A stretch of DNA of 60,459 bases, from the IMG/VR virus record IMGVR_UViG_3300033150_000902, positions 1 through 60,459 of that record. The stretch is one strand, 5' to 3'. This stretch comes from a virus (Duplodnaviria; Caudoviricetes). The notes below the pieces were generated by a model. That model saw only the letters and a list, made by a program, of their open reading frames with translations, ran no database searches and was not told the origin of the DNA. Positions 27,400 to 47,823 of this stretch are shown here, one piece after another (position 1 is the first letter of the stretch; each line of letters opens with the position of its first letter). A program made the position numbers and the translations under genes.

Positions 27400-27750
27400 T
27401 GTCCTCTCAGCTGTCCTATTTTTATTTTGCCCCCTATGTAACTATCGTAATTTATTAGAAAAAAACAGTGGTTATGCCTGTCCTCTCAGCTGTCCTTTGC
27501 CTGTCCTATTTTTATTTTGCCCCCTATGTAACTATCATAATTTATTAGAAAAAAACAGTGGTTATGCCTGTCCTTTAATTTCCCTTAATTGTCTTGTGCC
27601 TGTCCTCTCAGCTGTCCTCTCAGCTGTCCTCTCAGCTGTCCTGTTTTTATTTAGTCCTTTGGCAACTATCATAATTTATTACTAAATTCTATCGTCATGC
27701 CTGTCCTCTCAGCTGTCCTCTCAGCTGTCCTCTCAGCTGTCCTGTTTTTT
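27400..27750. repeat. Iteron-like repeat region, probable replication origin
   Basis: CTGTCCTCTCAG in tandem (3x near 27600 and 3x near 27701) plus single copies; a ~74-bp block at 27411 and 27501 (period 90, one mismatch); flanking T-rich tract; adjacent to the initiator gene. Confidence 0.7.
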
Positions 27751-39941: not shown

Positions 39942-41174
39942 GTGAAAGAACCGGGAAAATTTTTTCCAAATTCCCAAATCGAAAGTATTGTCAATCTGAA
40001 CGGGCGTCCTTTGTCTTGTCCTTCTTGCGGGTTGTATAAATACGTCCTTTCCCCGCGAATGGAACCGTTTGGAAAGTTCAAGAAAAAAATTCTGAACATC
40101 GGAGAAGCACCTGGCGAGACGGAGGACAAGAAAGGGAGACAATGGCAGGGTAAAGCAGGGCGGGCGTTGCGGCGAATGTATAGACAGTTGGGAATTGACT
40201 TGTTTGAGGATTGCCTTAACATCAACGCGGTAAACTGCCGTCCCATGACCAAACGCGGAACAAACCGAAGCCCGACATCACATGAGATAGCCTGTTGCAG
40301 AAAACGGGTCTTGGACGTTATAGAACAATACAAGCCGCATGTTATTATATGTCTGGGCAATCCCGCGATTGAATGTTTGATAGGTTATAGATGGAAACGA
40401 AATCTGGGGGGAGTTACAAAGTGGAGAGGTTGGATTATCCCTGATCGTGATTTTCAAGCCTGGATTTGCCCCACTTTCCATCCGAGTTATGTAGAGCGCA
40501 TGGACAGTCAGGATATAGACACTATTTGGAGACGGGATTTAGAAGGGGCTTTGTCCATGCAAGCCGTTCCTTTTCCGAGATTTCCAAATGAAGAGAATCA
40601 GGTAGAGATTATTGACAGTCCAGAACTCCTTGAGCCTTTTCCTGAATTGGTAGCCTTTGATTACGAAACCACCGGACTGAAACCTTATGCTAACGGGCAC
40701 CGCATTGTTTGCGCTTCTATCGCTTACAATGAAAATTATGCGGTCTCTTTTATGATGCCTACAGTCCCTTCTGAGAGAAAAAGATTCATACATTTACTCA
40801 GGGCGAAAGACATCGGCAAAATGGCCCATAACATGAAATTTGAAGAGTCGTGGAGCAAAATCAGGCTCCGTCAACCTGTAGAGAATTGGCAATGGGACTC
40901 AATGCTCGCCGCGCATGTATTGGACAACCGTTCAGGAATCACGGGATTGAAATTCCAAACATACGTGAATTTTGGAGTTGTGGATTATGACAGTGAAATA
41001 AACCCGTACCTAAAGGCAAAAGACGAAAAGAACGGAAACTCCCTGAACAGGGTAAACGAACTGATCGAAAGCGCGAACGGAAGGAAGAAATTACTAACAT
41101 ACTGCGGGCTTGATAGCTTATTTGAATACAAGTTGGCAATGAAGCAAATGAAGGAGATAGGAGTGAAAATATGA
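39942..41174 (+). CDS. Uracil-DNA glycosylase family 4-like domain fused to a PolA 3'-5' exonuclease domain
   Basis: CPSCGL, IGEAPG, NAVNCRP, TFHPSY (UDG4); AFDYETTGL, AHNMKFE, YCGLD (Exo I-III). Confidence 0.85.
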   Translation: MKEPGKFFPNSQIESIVNLNGRPLSCPSCGLYKYVLSPRMEPFGKFKKKILNIGEAPGETEDKKGRQWQGKAGRALRRMYRQLGIDLFEDCLNINAVNCRPMTKRGTNRSPTSHEIACCRKRVLDVIEQYKPHVIICLGNPAIECLIGYRWKRNLGGVTKWRGWIIPDRDFQAWICPTFHPSYVERMDSQDIDTIWRRDLEGALSMQAVPFPRFPNEENQVEIIDSPELLEPFPELVAFDYETTGLKPYANGHRIVCASIAYNENYAVSFMMPTVPSERKRFIHLLRAKDIGKMAHNMKFEESWSKIRLRQPVENWQWDSMLAAHVLDNRSGITGLKFQTYVNFGVVDYDSEINPYLKAKDEKNGNSLNRVNELIESANGRKKLLTYCGLDSLFEYKLAMKQMKEIGVKI

Positions 41175-41542
41175 AAGTAGGACTGTATAATCAGAGAATA
41201 CTTGTAGGTCAAAGGAAAGAGGAGGATGTCCAAATCATTCCGAGATTTATTGATAACGTTTCCTCCCTCCTATCCAATACAAGCCCGATTGAAGAACACA
41301 ATTATTTGCTTGGAAAAGAGAATATTCAGTTACAATATTACATATGTCCTACTTTTAATGTTTGCGTCCTCATTTGGCCGCAAACGAACCTGTTCGTATT
41401 TTATTTGACTTCCCTCAAACAATTGCCAGTGCGTGATATAAACAACCTTATAATGGATTACTTCAACACCGATAAATTTGAGTATTCCGCAAGAACGATA
41501 GAGGAAATAGCAAGCAGCGAGTATTCTAATGCTTCTGATTGA
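41171..41542 (+). CDS. Hypothetical protein, possibly a degenerate AdoMetDC/SpeD-like fold
   Basis: Size and the VLIWPQ...YLTS...IMDYF pattern resemble SpeD, but the ESH cleavage motif is absent. Confidence 0.3.
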   Translation: MKVGLYNQRILVGQRKEEDVQIIPRFIDNVSSLLSNTSPIEEHNYLLGKENIQLQYYICPTFNVCVLIWPQTNLFVFYLTSLKQLPVRDINNLIMDYFNTDKFEYSARTIEEIASSEYSNASD

Positions 41543-42374
41543 TTCAAATAACCTTGCTCACATGGCGAAATACAGCGGCAGAGGTTTGGATAACGGCGTG
41601 GTATATGTTTTCCTGATAGGACTACTGACTCTTTGCCGGTTGTATCAAACCACGGATGTTGTGTTTGCTTGGGACAGTCGAAAATCTCTGCGCCGAAAGT
41701 TGTATGATCCGATGTATAAAAAGACCCGTATAGACGCAAGGGCGGCTAAAGACCAGGCAGAGCAAGAATACGATAAGGAGGCGTTCGCTCAATTTAACGA
41801 GCTCCGACGTTTTGTATTGCCTGATATGGGATTCAGAAATATCTTTCAATTCACCGGATACGAGGCGGATGACATACTCGTTGGATTGTGTAGGGACAAC
41901 CCAGATATTAATAAGATCGTGGTAAGCAGTGATCATGATCTGTTTCAAGTGTTGGCGTATTCTCGTACCGTAATCTATAATCCAAGATCGAAGAAAGAAA
42001 TTAATGCTCAAGAGTTCACGGAACAGAAAGGAATAGACCCTGCTGACTGGCCTATTGTCTTGGCCATTGCCGGCGACCCTGGCGACGGCGTGGTTGGCAT
42101 TAAAGGAATAGGTGAAAAGTATGCTATTAGATATTTGCGGAATGAATTATCCTCGTCTTCCAAGCGTTACAAATTGATCACGGAAAATTGGGATACGGTA
42201 GAGAAGAATATTCCTCTTGTGAAATTGCCTCTTGAAACATGGGATAAGCGAATTGCCTTGAATGAAAATGATATTACCGAGGAACGATTAAGAGCCGTGT
42301 TTTCAAAGTATAAATTTAACTCATTCTTGCATGGGAAGTACCGTCAAGGATGGGAAACGTTGTGTGTTTTGTAA
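41529..42374 (+). CDS. 5'-3' exonuclease / flap endonuclease (PolI N-terminal-like)
   Basis: LLIDSNN, YKKTR, YEADD, SSDHDL, GDPGDGVVGIKGIGEK. Confidence 0.9.
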   Translation: MLLIDSNNLAHMAKYSGRGLDNGVVYVFLIGLLTLCRLYQTTDVVFAWDSRKSLRRKLYDPMYKKTRIDARAAKDQAEQEYDKEAFAQFNELRRFVLPDMGFRNIFQFTGYEADDILVGLCRDNPDINKIVVSSDHDLFQVLAYSRTVIYNPRSKKEINAQEFTEQKGIDPADWPIVLAIAGDPGDGVVGIKGIGEKYAIRYLRNELSSSSKRYKLITENWDTVEKNIPLVKLPLETWDKRIALNENDITEERLRAVFSKYKFNSFLHGKYRQGWETLCVL

Positions 42375-42376
42375 GG

Positions 42377-42709
42377 AAGAAGCCAAGGGGCCAAAGAAAC
42401 CCAGGCTCCCCAAGCGAGCCAATGTTTTGAAGAAACCCACGACGCTCAAGCGAGCCAGTGAAGGGAAGAAACCCATGGTTGAGAAGCGAGCCAACCCACA
42501 CGAGAAGCCCAAGGAGCACGAAGTGAGCCAATAATGCGAAGAAACCCAAAGGCAGAAAGCGAGCCAGGTTTTCCAAGAAACCCAATAAGGATAAGCGAGC
42601 CAGTTATGAAAGAAAAGAAACCCAAAAGCTGAAAGCGCGCCATCGAGCTCAAGAAACCCATGATGACAAAGCGAGCCAAGGTCAATAAGAAACCCAGCGT
42701 AACTAAGCG
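42377..42709 (+). repeat. TIGR-type array 1 (nine 36-nt units; predicted guide-RNA precursor)
   Basis: Alternating AAGCGAGCCA and AAGAAACCCA with unique spacers, mostly 8 nt (e.g. 42412, 42430, 42448); one 9-nt and one 12-nt spacer. Confidence 0.9.
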
Positions 42710-42762
42710 TATCGGCCCTGAAACCTAGAAACCTTTAACCCCAAACAGAAAGGAGTCTTAAA

Positions 42763-43731
42763 ATGGCGAAAGAAGAACTGAAAAAGAAAATCCTGAAAAC
42801 CCAGAACGGACTATGCGTTTTGACAGGAGAACCGCTCCCTGAAGATTTATCCCTGTTGGATACTGATCGGGAACAACAGAAAGCCGAGGGCGGCATCTAT
42901 ACAGAGGATAATACCAGGGTGGTAACTCCAGTGGCGCATATGGCAAGACACGGCAACCTGCGATTACGAGACAAAACATTAGACAAACTGAAAGCTCTTG
43001 TAGATGACCGTGAGCAAACAATGAAGTTATACAACAAGATAAATAACCAATTGCTTGCTTACCAAAGACGAACCGACAACCTTAATAATTCCACAATTGC
43101 TTTTCTTACTGACCATCTTGAATCGGTGGAAAAAGCATTGAAAGAAGTGACAAAAAAGGTTGAGAAGGAAGTGAAAAATCTTGCTAAAGTTAACCCTTTT
43201 GTGGCTACCATTCGGGCCGTCTCGGGTATAGGCGACATAACCGTAGCCTACTGTTTGGTCTATATTATTCTTGAAAAGGCTCCGCATGTATCGAGTTTAT
43301 GGAAGTACGCGGGCCTTCACGCACCTTCGCATAAACGGTATCCGAAAAAAGGAGAAAGTACGAAGGGCGGAGGCGGAAATAAAGCCCTGAGAACGGCGTT
43401 GTGGAATATGGCTAATTCGCAAGAGAAAAACATGAAAGGGGCTTACCGTCCAATATATGATCAGGTAAAAGCAAGGCTGGCGCAAAGTGATAAAATTGTT
43501 GAAACCAGAAATACTCAAGGTGTGCTTGTAAAAGTCCCGTGGAAAGAGGCGAAACCGTGTCACAGGCAAGGCGCGGCAAAGCGGGCGGTTATGAAGCATT
43601 TCCTTGCCGATTACTGGTACGTTGGAAGGACGCTGGCGGGGTTGCCTACAAATCCCCCCTATGCCGAGGCCATACTCGGGAAGGAAGGGCACCGAACAGT
43701 CGATCCGAGAGCAAGAGGATGGGTATTCTGA
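42763..43731 (+). CDS. tasH: TIGR-associated protein, TasH architecture (HNH-like + coiled coil + Nop/IS110 C-terminal domain)
   Basis: QNGLCVLTG...GGIYTEDN...AHMARH (HNH-like); VSGIGDITVA, SSLWKYAGL, GNKALRTALW, AKRAVMKHFL (IS110 Transposase_20/Nop-like); no DEDD RuvC domain; RBS AAGGAG; arrays on both sides. Confidence 0.85.
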   Translation: MAKEELKKKILKTQNGLCVLTGEPLPEDLSLLDTDREQQKAEGGIYTEDNTRVVTPVAHMARHGNLRLRDKTLDKLKALVDDREQTMKLYNKINNQLLAYQRRTDNLNNSTIAFLTDHLESVEKALKEVTKKVEKEVKNLAKVNPFVATIRAVSGIGDITVAYCLVYIILEKAPHVSSLWKYAGLHAPSHKRYPKKGESTKGGGGNKALRTALWNMANSQEKNMKGAYRPIYDQVKARLAQSDKIVETRNTQGVLVKVPWKEAKPCHRQGAAKRAVMKHFLADYWYVGRTLAGLPTNPPYAEAILGKEGHRTVDPRARGWVF

Positions 43732-43781
43732 ATGTGAGTAACGCTTTAAGTAAGATAAAAAAGGAATCCATAATAAATGAA

Positions 43782-43935
43782 AAGCGAGCCACGATCCGTA
43801 AGAAACCCATGGAGGGCAAGCGAGCCACGATCTCGAAGAAACCCAGAGGACAAAAGCGAGCCAATAAACCGAAGAAACCCAACGAGAGGTAGCGAGCCAA
43901 AATTAAAAAGAAACCCAATGCGCTCAAGCGAACCA
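43782..43935 (+). repeat. TIGR-type array 2 (four complete 36-nt units)
   Basis: Edge repeats at 43782, 43818, 43854, 43890 and 43926 (exact 36-nt period) with AAGAAACCCA between them; a degenerate half-unit at 43761. Confidence 0.88.
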
Positions 43936-43980
43936 ATAGCCAATAGAGAGAAAAACCAAATACCCAGGAGGAATTAAAAG

Positions 43981-44346
43981 ATGAAACGTTTTATAGTATC
44001 CGTAATGATTGGTCTATTTGCTACAGGTATTTTTTACATTCCGGCACAGGCGCAAGAAACCATTGATGAAAATAGTTTTGAATATCGTTTATCCATTTGC
44101 GCCAAATTTGAAAAGTTTGCCCGAACGATTATGCGATGTAGACAGAAGGGAGGTTCTTTAACGGAAATGCTTAAAATAGTTGATAAGGCGAATATGTCTG
44201 ACAAAGGAAAAGACGTGTGTAGAATAATTATCCTGATGGCTTTTGAAGAGCCGCGATACATGACAAAAGAAGTGCAACGACGAGCGGAAATACAATTCGG
44301 AAACAGGGTCAGTCGTGAATGTCTAAGCGGTTATTTCGATAAATGA
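43981..44346 (+). CDS. Secreted hypothetical protein
   Basis: Signal peptide ending AQA; RBS AGGAGG. Confidence 0.6.
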   Translation: MKRFIVSVMIGLFATGIFYIPAQAQETIDENSFEYRLSICAKFEKFARTIMRCRQKGGSLTEMLKIVDKANMSDKGKDVCRIIILMAFEEPRYMTKEVQRRAEIQFGNRVSRECLSGYFDK

Positions 44347-44772: not shown

Positions 44773-45516
44773 ATGTACAAATTAACTCAATTAGATGGAA
44801 CAGATTTTTATTCAGGTACGATTAATTATGCTGAAAATATAGGTAAAATCATTCGTGTTAAAGATTATGATGGCCCGGAATTTGGAGTATGTGGCAAGGG
44901 TATTCATGCAAGTCGTAATCCTAACGATTGCTTTATTGAAGCGAAAATACCCTGTCGGGCATTTAGAGTACAGGGGATACAACGTATTGTGGGGAATAAA
45001 AAGAAGTCCCAGTATCAAGCAGTAAAAGTATTGGAGGAAATAACTGATTTGGATAAACTATTTGGCTGGAAGTACTCGGAAGCCATTAATCCTATACATC
45101 CCTTTATGATAAAGTCTCCAAAAATAACAGATGAGCATATTAAGTTATTGGAGAAGTGGACTTCGGTCTGGGATTGGTCTATGTATTCTGTCGTGGCTTC
45201 GGTCAGGGATTTGGTCAGGAATTTGGTCGTGGCTTCGGTCAGGGCTTCGGTTGGCGGGAATTCGATTGTGGTTTCAGTCAGGGCTTCGGCCAGGGATTTA
45301 GTTAGGGCTTCGATCTGGAATACGGTCTGGGCTTATGTAGGTTCTATATTTCCGAATATTAAAAAATGGAAATATGTAAAACATAAACTTGGTGAATATC
45401 CTTTTCAACCCGCAGTGGACTTATGGAAGCAGGGATTTGTACCGTCATTTGATGGCAAGACATGGAGATTGCATGCGTGCAAAAAGTCAAAAGTTTTATG
45501 GGAAGGGGAAATTTAA
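44773..45516 (+). CDS. Phage protein with CG.GIHAS domain and 4-aa (xSVR/W) repeats
   Basis: VCGKGIHASRNPNDCF; 12-bp coding repeats at about 45160-45330. Confidence 0.55.
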   Translation: MYKLTQLDGTDFYSGTINYAENIGKIIRVKDYDGPEFGVCGKGIHASRNPNDCFIEAKIPCRAFRVQGIQRIVGNKKKSQYQAVKVLEEITDLDKLFGWKYSEAINPIHPFMIKSPKITDEHIKLLEKWTSVWDWSMYSVVASVRDLVRNLVVASVRASVGGNSIVVSVRASARDLVRASIWNTVWAYVGSIFPNIKKWKYVKHKLGEYPFQPAVDLWKQGFVPSFDGKTWRLHACKKSKVLWEGEI

Positions 45517-46428: not shown

Positions 46429-47823
46429 ATGCAAATCACCGCTACAACAAAAGACGCATACTATTTGCTTCATGAAGGGTCGCTGGCGTTCGCACGCGCC
46501 GAGCAGGTAGGACTTAGGATTGACGTTGAGTACTGTGAAAGACAAAAAGTAATCCTCGACAAAAAAATCAATCGATTGAAAACCAAATTTGAGGAAACGA
46601 AATTCGGCCAAAGGTGGAAGCAGATATACGGAGCAAAATTCAATCTGAACTCCAACCCGCAGTTGTCCTATTGCCTGTATAAAGTTTTGAAAATAGAGCC
46701 TGTCAAACTGACCGATACCGGCATGGGTTCGACTGATGAAGAGGCGTTGTCATCCCTTGAAATGCCCGAATTAGACTTGCTCCTGCAAATTCGTAAACTG
46801 ATAAAAGTCAAAGACACCTATTTGGACTCTCTTATCAGGGAGCAAGTGCGGGGAGTGATTCATCCTTTTTTCAATCTACATACAGTGCGGACTTACCGTT
46901 CAAGTTCTGACAGACCTAATTTTCAGAACATCCCGAAAAGGGATAAGGAGTCCCAAAAGATTGTTCGCGGAGCGATCTATCCCCGCCCTGGCCATCAGTT
47001 ATTGGAAGTTGACTACTCAGGGATAGAGGTCAGGATAGCCGGTGTCTATACGCAGGATGAAAAGTTGATTTACGATACAGTTCATGGGGACATGCACACA
47101 GATATGGCTATTGAATTGTACATGCTTGATTCCCTGAACAAACATCATTCAGGAGAAGCCCAGTTGCGGCAAGGGGCGAAAAACGGTTTTGTTTTCCCTC
47201 AATTCTACGGCGATTATTACGGTAATTGTGTTCCTAACCTTCTTAAATGGGCGAAGGACGCTACTCTTGAGGACGGCACGCCTGCCTTAGTCCATCTGAA
47301 CGATAAAGGATTGGTGAAACTGACCAAAACAGGGAAACTTAGAAACTCGGATAAATTCATGGATCATGTAAAACAAGTTGAAGATCAATTTTGGAATGAT
47401 CGTTATAGAAAATACACTGAGTGGAAAGAAAAGACTTGGAGAAGGTACCAAAAGACAGGATACATCGAATTCCTTAGCGGATTTCGTTGTTCGGGAGTCA
47501 TGCGTAAAAATGAGGTGCTGAACACTCCTATTCAGGGAACGGCCTTTCACTGTCTTTTATGGTCATTTATCCAAGTTGACAAACTTTCCCGGAAAGAGAA
47601 GTGGGATACTAAATTAATTGGGCAAATTCATGACTCAATGCTCTTGGATGTAAATCCAAAAGAACTGAATATGGTGGCTAAGAAGGTGCAAGACATTAGT
47701 TGCAACGAATTATCTAAGGCATGGCCCTGGCTAAACGTACCCCTTGAAGTAGAAGCTGAGATTTGTCCCGTGGATAGACCGTGGGCGGACAAGACAGACT
47801 GGGAAATCCCAAACAATTTTTGA
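46429..47823 (+). CDS. polA: Family A DNA polymerase, polymerase domain only
   Basis: FNLNSNPQL, SSDRPNFQNIP, motif A DYSGIEVR, motif B RQGAKN...YG, NTPIQGTA, motif C IHDS. Confidence 0.92.
   Translation: MQITATTKDAYYLLHEGSLAFARAEQVGLRIDVEYCERQKVILDKKINRLKTKFEETKFGQRWKQIYGAKFNLNSNPQLSYCLYKVLKIEPVKLTDTGMGSTDEEALSSLEMPELDLLLQIRKLIKVKDTYLDSLIREQVRGVIHPFFNLHTVRTYRSSSDRPNFQNIPKRDKESQKIVRGAIYPRPGHQLLEVDYSGIEVRIAGVYTQDEKLIYDTVHGDMHTDMAIELYMLDSLNKHHSGEAQLRQGAKNGFVFPQFYGDYYGNCVPNLLKWAKDATLEDGTPALVHLNDKGLVKLTKTGKLRNSDKFMDHVKQVEDQFWNDRYRKYTEWKEKTWRRYQKTGYIEFLSGFRCSGVMRKNEVLNTPIQGTAFHCLLWSFIQVDKLSRKEKWDTKLIGQIHDSMLLDVNPKELNMVAKKVQDISCNELSKAWPWLNVPLEVEAEICPVDRPWADKTDWEIPNNF

Follow-up and report, generated by a model that had tools for sequence, protein, structure and literature searches.

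The window analysed here, the whole 60,459 bases of the source contig, comes from a phage and contains a tasH gene with a repeat array on either side of it. The neighbouring genes form a replication block that includes a beta-clamp-like protein, a UDG–exonuclease fusion, a DNA polymerase A and a clamp-loader-like ATPase; no relative of the DNA polymerase above 28.6% identity was found among 50,697 phage records. The features referred to below are as follows, in window coordinates.

39942-41174: uracil-DNA-glycosylase fused to a 3'-5' exonuclease domain
41529-42374: 5'-3' exonuclease gene (Pfam 5_3_exonuc_N, E 7e-19)
42381..42709, + strand: TIGR array 1, dual-repeat, 9 units, period 36
42486..42522, + strand: unit 4 of array 1, 37 nt, degenerate at three places
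42595..42634, + strand: unit 7 of array 1, 40 nt
42763..43731, + strand: tasH, 322 aa, with an N-terminal HNH nuclease, a coiled coil and a C-terminal Nop domain
43762..43782, + strand: leader half-unit of array 2, degenerate, consisting of the loop-like AGGAATCCA with 12 nt after it
43783..43935, + strand: TIGR array 2, 4 complete 36-nt units, with edge and loop repeats as in array 1
46429-47823: separate polymerase-domain ORF

Array 1 begins 7 bases past the stop codon of the 5'-3' exonuclease gene and is built from two alternating repeats, an edge repeat (AAGCGAGCCA) and a loop repeat (AAGAAACCCA), each unit running from spacer A through the loop repeat to spacer B and on to the edge repeat. 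It opens on a 5'-truncated edge repeat (AGCCA, 42381-42385) and closes on a 3'-truncated one (AAGCG, 42705-42709), in agreement with the published description of TIGR arrays as starting and ending on truncated edge repeats (PMC12045711); an earlier, sequence-only reading of the window had given the array as 42386-42709, which is the stretch from the first base of spacer A of unit 1 to the end of the terminal AAGCG. The nine spacer pairs listed in that reading are all present as written, each spacer bounded by CCA on its 5' side and AAG on its 3' side, and the motifs CCA and AG are found in both types of repeat. Edge 8-mers start at 42414, 42450, 42486, 42523, 42559, 42595, 42635 and 42671, so that seven of the nine units measure 36 nt, with units 4 and 7 longer, at 37 and 40 nt, as had been stated. 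Unit 4 has G at position 9 of spacer A, a loop repeat with one mismatch (GAAGCCCA) and a spacer B of 9 nt (AGGAGCACG), and is followed by an edge repeat that also has one mismatch (GTGAGCCA). The stretch of unit 7 between the edge repeat and the loop 8-mer is 14 nt long (GTTATGAAAGAAAA) against 10 nt in regular units, and from this we infer an 8-nt spacer with a 4-nt insertion beside the loop repeat. A period-36 repeat was detected by Tandem Repeats Finder at 42394-42475 and again at 43780-43881; within 42395-42696 the exact edge 9-mer AGCGAGCCA occurs six times and the exact loop 9-mer AGAAACCCA eight times, counts that are far beyond chance. Rfam gave no match within 42000-44200 at E <= 1, and a scan for promoters and terminators found none above shuffled expectation, with no terminator-like site after either array.

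The TasH protein matches the chains of solved TasH structures over residues 7-321 (phmmer E 1.1e-99 to 9w04 and others, from Salicola phage CGphi29) and has 52.7% identity to the protein of that phage by tblastn; 316 TasH homologues were found at E <= 1e-10. The view that array 1 encodes tigRNAs holds; the dual-repeat array of period 36 lies beside this gene. Published work on the CGphi29 protein (SpTasH) assigns H58 and the catalytic histidine H54 to the HNH centre and describes stacking of W249 and H256 against the displaced strand and the tigRNA. These four residues, together with Y289, R278 and R305, are conserved in all 61 sequences of an alignment of CGphi29 TasH with 60 homologues, window TasH included, and K211 and N45 are conserved in 59 and 60 of the 61, respectively. 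SpTasH is also reported to process its own RNA via Y289/H296 (PMC13421893). The column of H296 holds a lysine in window TasH; a histidine follows three residues on, the loop there carrying an indel of two residues, and the same lysine with a nearby histidine is seen in its closest relatives. Judged on its residues, window TasH is likely to be an active nuclease and to process its own RNA, self-processing being likely with some uncertainty because H296 aligns with a lysine within an indel loop. Pfam reported no HNH domain in window TasH. Weaker similarity exists to chains of IS110-family transposases in the PDB (phmmer E 1.2e-11 and 0.016) and to Pfam Transposase_20 (20.7 bits, which is under the cut-off of that family).

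Array 2 lies 3' of tasH and ends on the edge-like AGCGAACCA. It could be compared with the downstream array of a relative (L012) whose TasH is 92% identical to window TasH over a C-terminal fragment, the only part present in that locus. The leader half-unit is largely conserved in the relative, and positions 279-440 of L012 hold the same number of units (four) as 43783-43935 of the window. All eight spacers differ between the two arrays, with 23 of 64 spacer bases identical, whilst 86 of the 89 bases of 43783-43935 outside the eight spacers (the repeats and position 9) are identical, as are 206 of 230 in the flanks. The comparison leans weakly towards a replacement of spacers that would act on eight bases and leave position 9 out. 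As an observation on array turnover, it also suggests replacement in place, eight bases at each site, rather than addition at one end. Near-duplicate spacers occur within array 2 (CGATCCGT at 43792-43799 and CGATCTCG at 43828-43835), two repeated unit pairs are present in another locus (L011) and repeated spacers in two more (L004 and L008); such duplications suggest that arrays grow by duplication of units followed by point changes. Spacer acquisition by TIGR arrays is treated as an open question in the papers.

Three other features of the contig were observed. The family A DNA polymerase looks split, its halves standing 5 kb apart with the TIGR-TasH locus and small ORFs between them. The region at 27411-27743 could be an origin or iteron-like: after a tandem repeat with a 90-nt unit (1.8 copies, 98% matches) come two stretches, about 100 nt apart, that each hold 3.6 perfect copies of the 12-mer CTGTCCTCTCAG. 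Finally, a coding repeat of period 12/36 (GGCTTCGGTCAG-like, about four copies of 36) lies at 45156-45298 inside ORF 44773-45516, the protein of which has a weak match to DUF7666; it shares its period with the TIGR units by coincidence and is without TIGR repeats.

The register of the arrays and the constant adenine

It had been noticed from the sequence that the spacers of array 1 consist of eight variable nucleotides followed by a near-invariant A, and the counts agree. When position 9 is taken as the second base before the G of the repeat, it is A in 17 of the 18 half-units of array 1 (the exception being the G in spacer A of unit 4) and in seven of the eight half-units of array 2 (T once), giving 24 of 26 for both arrays. 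The base after position 9 is always A, and the one after that always G; each window spacer therefore has the 3' flank AAG. Eight variable positions thus lie between box C and box D, and not the nine that are the norm of TasR and TasA. The array of CGphi29, the sequence of which was examined, has the same CCA-N8-A-AG register.

The pattern was followed through 13 TasH loci (the window, CGphi29 and 11 viral contigs), which together contain 226 half-units of regular form. In this set positions 1-8 have an information content of 0.00-0.15 bits; A stands at position 9 in 208 half-units and at position 10 in 224, and G at position 11 in 201. Positions 11 and 16 covary, the former being G and sometimes A, the latter (the first base of CCA) C and sometimes T: the combinations were G-C in 187 cases, A-T in 17, G-T in 13 and A-C in 7 (Fisher p 2e-12). 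A base pair between box D and box C has been described for TasR (PMC12045711) and for a stem-loop TasR (10.64898/2026.09.09.750476). The covariation places the G of box D at position 11 and so fixes the register independently of the literature: box C is CCA, nine positions follow, box D is AG and the connector is 4 nt long. The window register is identical to the combination of a 14-nt interval and a 4-bp gap described for TIGRFinder. It follows from the covariation that the earlier alignment onto the TasR scheme was sound, with the A standing in the slot of the ninth spacer base, which in TasR and PlTasA (box C, 9 nt, box D) is a paired one. The CCA...UG motifs and 9-nt spacers that the sequence-only reading gave for characterised tigRNAs are indeed the published TasR norm (PMC12045711).

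A wider survey added 54 metagenome loci, for 67 in all, with a detector whose one fixed element was a box C recurring every 18 nt. Arrays were detected at 55 of the 67 TasH loci. These gave 799 unique half-units, of which 729 had A at position 9; the information at positions 1-8 was at most 0.08 bits, and A was the commonest base at position 9 in every one of the 55 loci. The eight-plus-A pattern is consequently a rule of every TasH array that was parsed and is not particular to this phage. Position 9 also behaves, weakly, as a base of the repeat, in that a base other than A at this position tends to accompany decayed repeats: the next repeat was degenerate in 10 of 18 half-units without A at position 9, against 58 of 208 with it (p 0.03).

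Target searches and the role of the constant adenine

Does the constant A read the target? TasR has been reported to leave 8-nt 3' overhangs (PMC12045711), which implies that the two spacers face each other with their 3' ends at the target centre; the sequence-only reading was therefore right to place spacer A before the reverse complement of spacer B (A8...rc(B8)). That reading had gone on to suggest that, if the ninth base pairs, targets would carry a constant central AT, and that otherwise the spacers are truly 8 nt long. The analysis favours the second course. We consider it probable, with good confidence, that the near-invariant A is a fixed nucleotide of the repeat which in the TasH clade does not read the target, that the reading part is 8+8 nt with no constant AT demanded of targets, and that array and TasH work as they do in CGphi29; if A9 does not read the target, the variable part is 8+8 nt and no constant AT would be required. 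For the CGphi29 system, a spacer of 8 nt has already been published. Variable nucleotides number 16 in the CGphi29 TasH array against 18 in the arrays of TasA and TasR (PMC12045711), and the cryo-EM study of SpTasH describes base pairing between 'the 8 nt Spacer A' and DNA, uses a mismatch series that runs from MM1 to MM16, that is over 16 positions, and finds that the heteroduplex falls one bp short of the 9 bp formed in TaTasR and PlTasA (10.64898/2026.08.11.744272). The fallback of 8-nt spacers thus agrees with the published 16 variable nt and 8-bp heteroduplex of CGphi29 TasH. This evidence for an unpaired A9 belongs to a homologue of 52.7% identity rather than to window TasH, to which it would apply by analogy; the array comparisons made here lean weakly the same way.

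Natural targets were looked for in three sets of sequence. When the 13 units of the window were searched against the window with the arrays masked, at gaps of 0-4 and up to three mismatches, matches showed no excess over controls: three were found at two mismatches and 31 at three, where mis-paired controls (156 pairs) predict 3.9 and 33.8. No excess was seen either when 94 tigRNA pairs from the 13 TasH loci were searched against those same loci (124 kb), with one match at one mismatch and 27 at two, against 1.0 and 25.0 in controls. Viral contigs were scanned with five of the 13 window units, the variable gap serving as an internal control and near-identical contigs being collapsed to contexts. 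Among the matches listed for these five units, the independent contexts pooled over gaps of 0-5 number 27, 30, 55, 47, 19 and 44; the gap distribution differs strongly from unit to unit and has a period-3 structure, as codon phase would produce in coding sequence. The matches fall in unrelated genes of unrelated contigs, and among those listed for the five units no target was shared by several spacers. Searches of ten other units against the contigs from the first three scans gave two matches at one mismatch, with about 2.6 expected. The chance expectation for a 16-mer in 596 billion bases is about 280 per gap setting, and a scan of a collection of that size is for this reason uninformative. 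A preference for AT in targets was not seen in searches that had little power, and the same view of searches with short spacers is taken elsewhere (10.64898/2026.09.09.750476).

An 18-bp footprint, in which two unread bp separate the 8-bp half-sites (A8-NN-rc(B8)) and A9 lies unpaired over the centre of a TasR-like 9+9 geometry kept by the TasH dimer, is unlikely, though it fits several observations. Box C and box D stand as far apart as they do in TasR, and TasR cuts targets with gaps of 1 and 2 bp about as well as ungapped ones (PMC12045711). Among the matches listed, a gap of two gave the most matches of any gap from 0 to 4 in four of the five scans (the unit designated v1 being the exception); counted as independent contexts among the matches listed, it came top in two scans, tied with a gap of three in one and failed in two. 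Against this, v1 has only three contexts at gap 2 and 15 at gaps 1 and 3, and unit 8 has as many contexts at gap 5 as at gap 2 (both among the matches listed), a pattern resembling codon-phase noise, and the scatter of the matches over unrelated genes of unrelated contigs is unlike what true targets would give. A test of codon-phase coherence, which asks in a periodic Markov model how far A8 and rc(B8) share a reading frame at gaps of 0, 1 or 2, could not tell gaps 0 and 2 apart over 352 tigRNA pairs (+3.7 against +4.8 nats, null sd 3.6), with gap 1 mildly disfavoured (z -1.9). The half-sites are, moreover, described as consecutive in the papers, where 16 target positions are numbered.

A variant of this geometry, to which we give a very low probability, would keep the half-sites two bp apart, an 18-bp footprint as in TasR, and let A9 (perhaps with the next A) extend the pairing wherever the target has T, so that a weak and possibly asymmetric central preference might exist. 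Published substrates, if contiguous over 16 bp, would not have revealed it; on a contiguous 8+8 target, A9 pairing would stay hidden even where natural targets permit it. The hint for such extended pairing is the 18-mer A8-TT-rc(B8) of unit 2, which occurs in four unrelated coding contexts on 17 viral contigs (L016, L018, L046, L071 and contigs near-identical to them) and which corresponds to spacer B extended by the two A's after it. Central TT accounts for four of the 13 two-base-gap contexts of unit 2; taking 0.10 as the context-specific TT frequency, p is ~0.03, a value left uncorrected for the choice among 16 dinucleotides in five units. The excess is not repeated in the other four units scanned, and TT is found in six of the 55 two-base-gap contexts of all five, again among the matches listed. 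One of the unit-2 TT contexts has a GVDVAG-type motif that we take to be terminase-like, and another is a long alpha-helical protein. The abundant two-base-gap matches listed for unit 5 come from two large families of contigs, one with GT at the centre (17 matches) and the other with TA (14 matches).

Least probable of all, and in our view highly improbable, is that the ninth base pairs with the target, giving 9-nt functional spacers and a constant central AT (A8-AT-rc(B8)) comparable to the dinucleotide core known from IS110 bridge RNAs. In its favour are the canonical spacing of 9 nt between box C and box D, the 9-bp heteroduplexes of TaTasR and PlTasA and the conservation of A9 in all 55 arrays, which a family-wide need for a central AT would also produce. 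The 8-nt pairing and 16-position mismatch series of SpTasH (10.64898/2026.08.11.744272) and the tendency of decayed repeats to go with other bases at position 9 speak against it. The available text of PMC12045711 reports no motif requirement for TasH, from an assay that randomised the flanks and not the centre. Searching for A8-NN-rc(B8), as the sequence-only reading had proposed, through the window, the 13 TasH loci and the viral contigs (five units) showed no preference for AT among the matches listed. Central AT was found in five of the 55 two-base-gap contexts listed for the five units, slightly above the roughly 3.4 expected and not an excess (binomial p 0.26), and in none of the 13 contexts of unit 2. 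With the published 8-nt pairing of SpTasH set beside these counts, the proposal of a paired ninth base and a fixed central AT is not upheld.

A TIGR-TasH system and its relatives

Returning to the reading in which the A belongs to the repeat, the locus would work along lines known from CGphi29, for which DNA cleavage by TasH guided by tigRNAs has been reported (PMC12045711; PMC13421893; 10.64898/2026.08.11.744272). By homology with that system, the array would be transcribed on the + strand, and TasH would cut the precursor within each edge repeat with the Tyr/His loop of its own Nop domain. We infer the exact processing site to lie between AAGCG and AGCCA, a cut that would release 36-nt tigRNAs of the form AGCCA-N8-AAGAAACCCA-N8-AAGCG. 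A TasH dimer would then grip each tigRNA at two symmetric anchors, each formed of box C (CCA) and box D (AG), with the G of box D paired to the first C of box C. The two 8-nt spacers would pair with opposite strands of adjacent half-sites, making the target A8 plus rc(B8), and both target strands would be cut by the two HNH domains. The 36-nt processing, the 8-bp heteroduplexes and the cleavage would all carry over to this phage from the CGphi29 homologue.

The closest system is SpTIGR-TasH of Salicola phage CGphi29 (NC_020844; PDB 9W03, 9W04 and others). Both have the same architecture of HNH domain, coiled coil and Nop domain, with catalytic and RNA-contact residues conserved alike, and they share an identical edge repeat (AAGCGAGCCA), CCA-N8-A-AG register and 36-nt unit. 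They differ at two positions of the loop repeat, which is AAGAAACCCA in the window and AAGACAACCA in CGphi29, and in their layout, since window arrays flank tasH on both sides whereas CGphi29 has one array downstream of the gene. The window locus stands in a block of replication genes, the CGphi29 locus beside head genes, and no spacer is shared among those compared. With the dual-repeat TIGR-TasR system of TaTasR (Faure et al. 2025, PMC12045711) the window has in common the 36-nt units, the CCA of box C, the distance of 9 nt between box C and box D, the 4-nt connector and two spacers that read opposite strands; in contrast, the nuclease of TasR is RuvC where the window has HNH, its box D is UG rather than AG, and its nine spacer positions are all variable and paired (18 nt), whereas here a fixed ninth A leaves 16 variable nt.

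The IS110 bridge RNAs are a more distant case. A related Nop-like RNA-binding domain is found in both, and split guides flanked by motifs like box C and box D are common to them (PMC12045711), whereas the window locus is without a recombinase or a donor loop, and the constant A lies here in the RNA repeat, with no constant target dinucleotide evident among the matches listed. As in CRISPR arrays, a repeat-spacer array beside an effector gene gives rise to guide RNAs; TIGR arrays differ in having two alternating repeats, each of 8-12 nt in the TasH subtype, and pairs of 8-nt spacers that read both strands, and, so far as the available text of PMC12045711 describes them, in being without a PAM and without known adaptation genes.

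As judged from genes and repeats together, the locus is a new example of a TIGR-TasH system, a known type, and it opens no new mechanism. For finding the natural targets of TIGR systems, a database search alone with 16-nt guides is insufficient, a conclusion likewise found in 10.64898/2026.09.09.750476. What the locus adds is a TIGR-TasH system that is well preserved, has two arrays and comes from a phage without a close cultured relative, and the rule of the constant A is useful both for annotating TasH arrays and for designing guides, in which N8 should be used and AAG kept.
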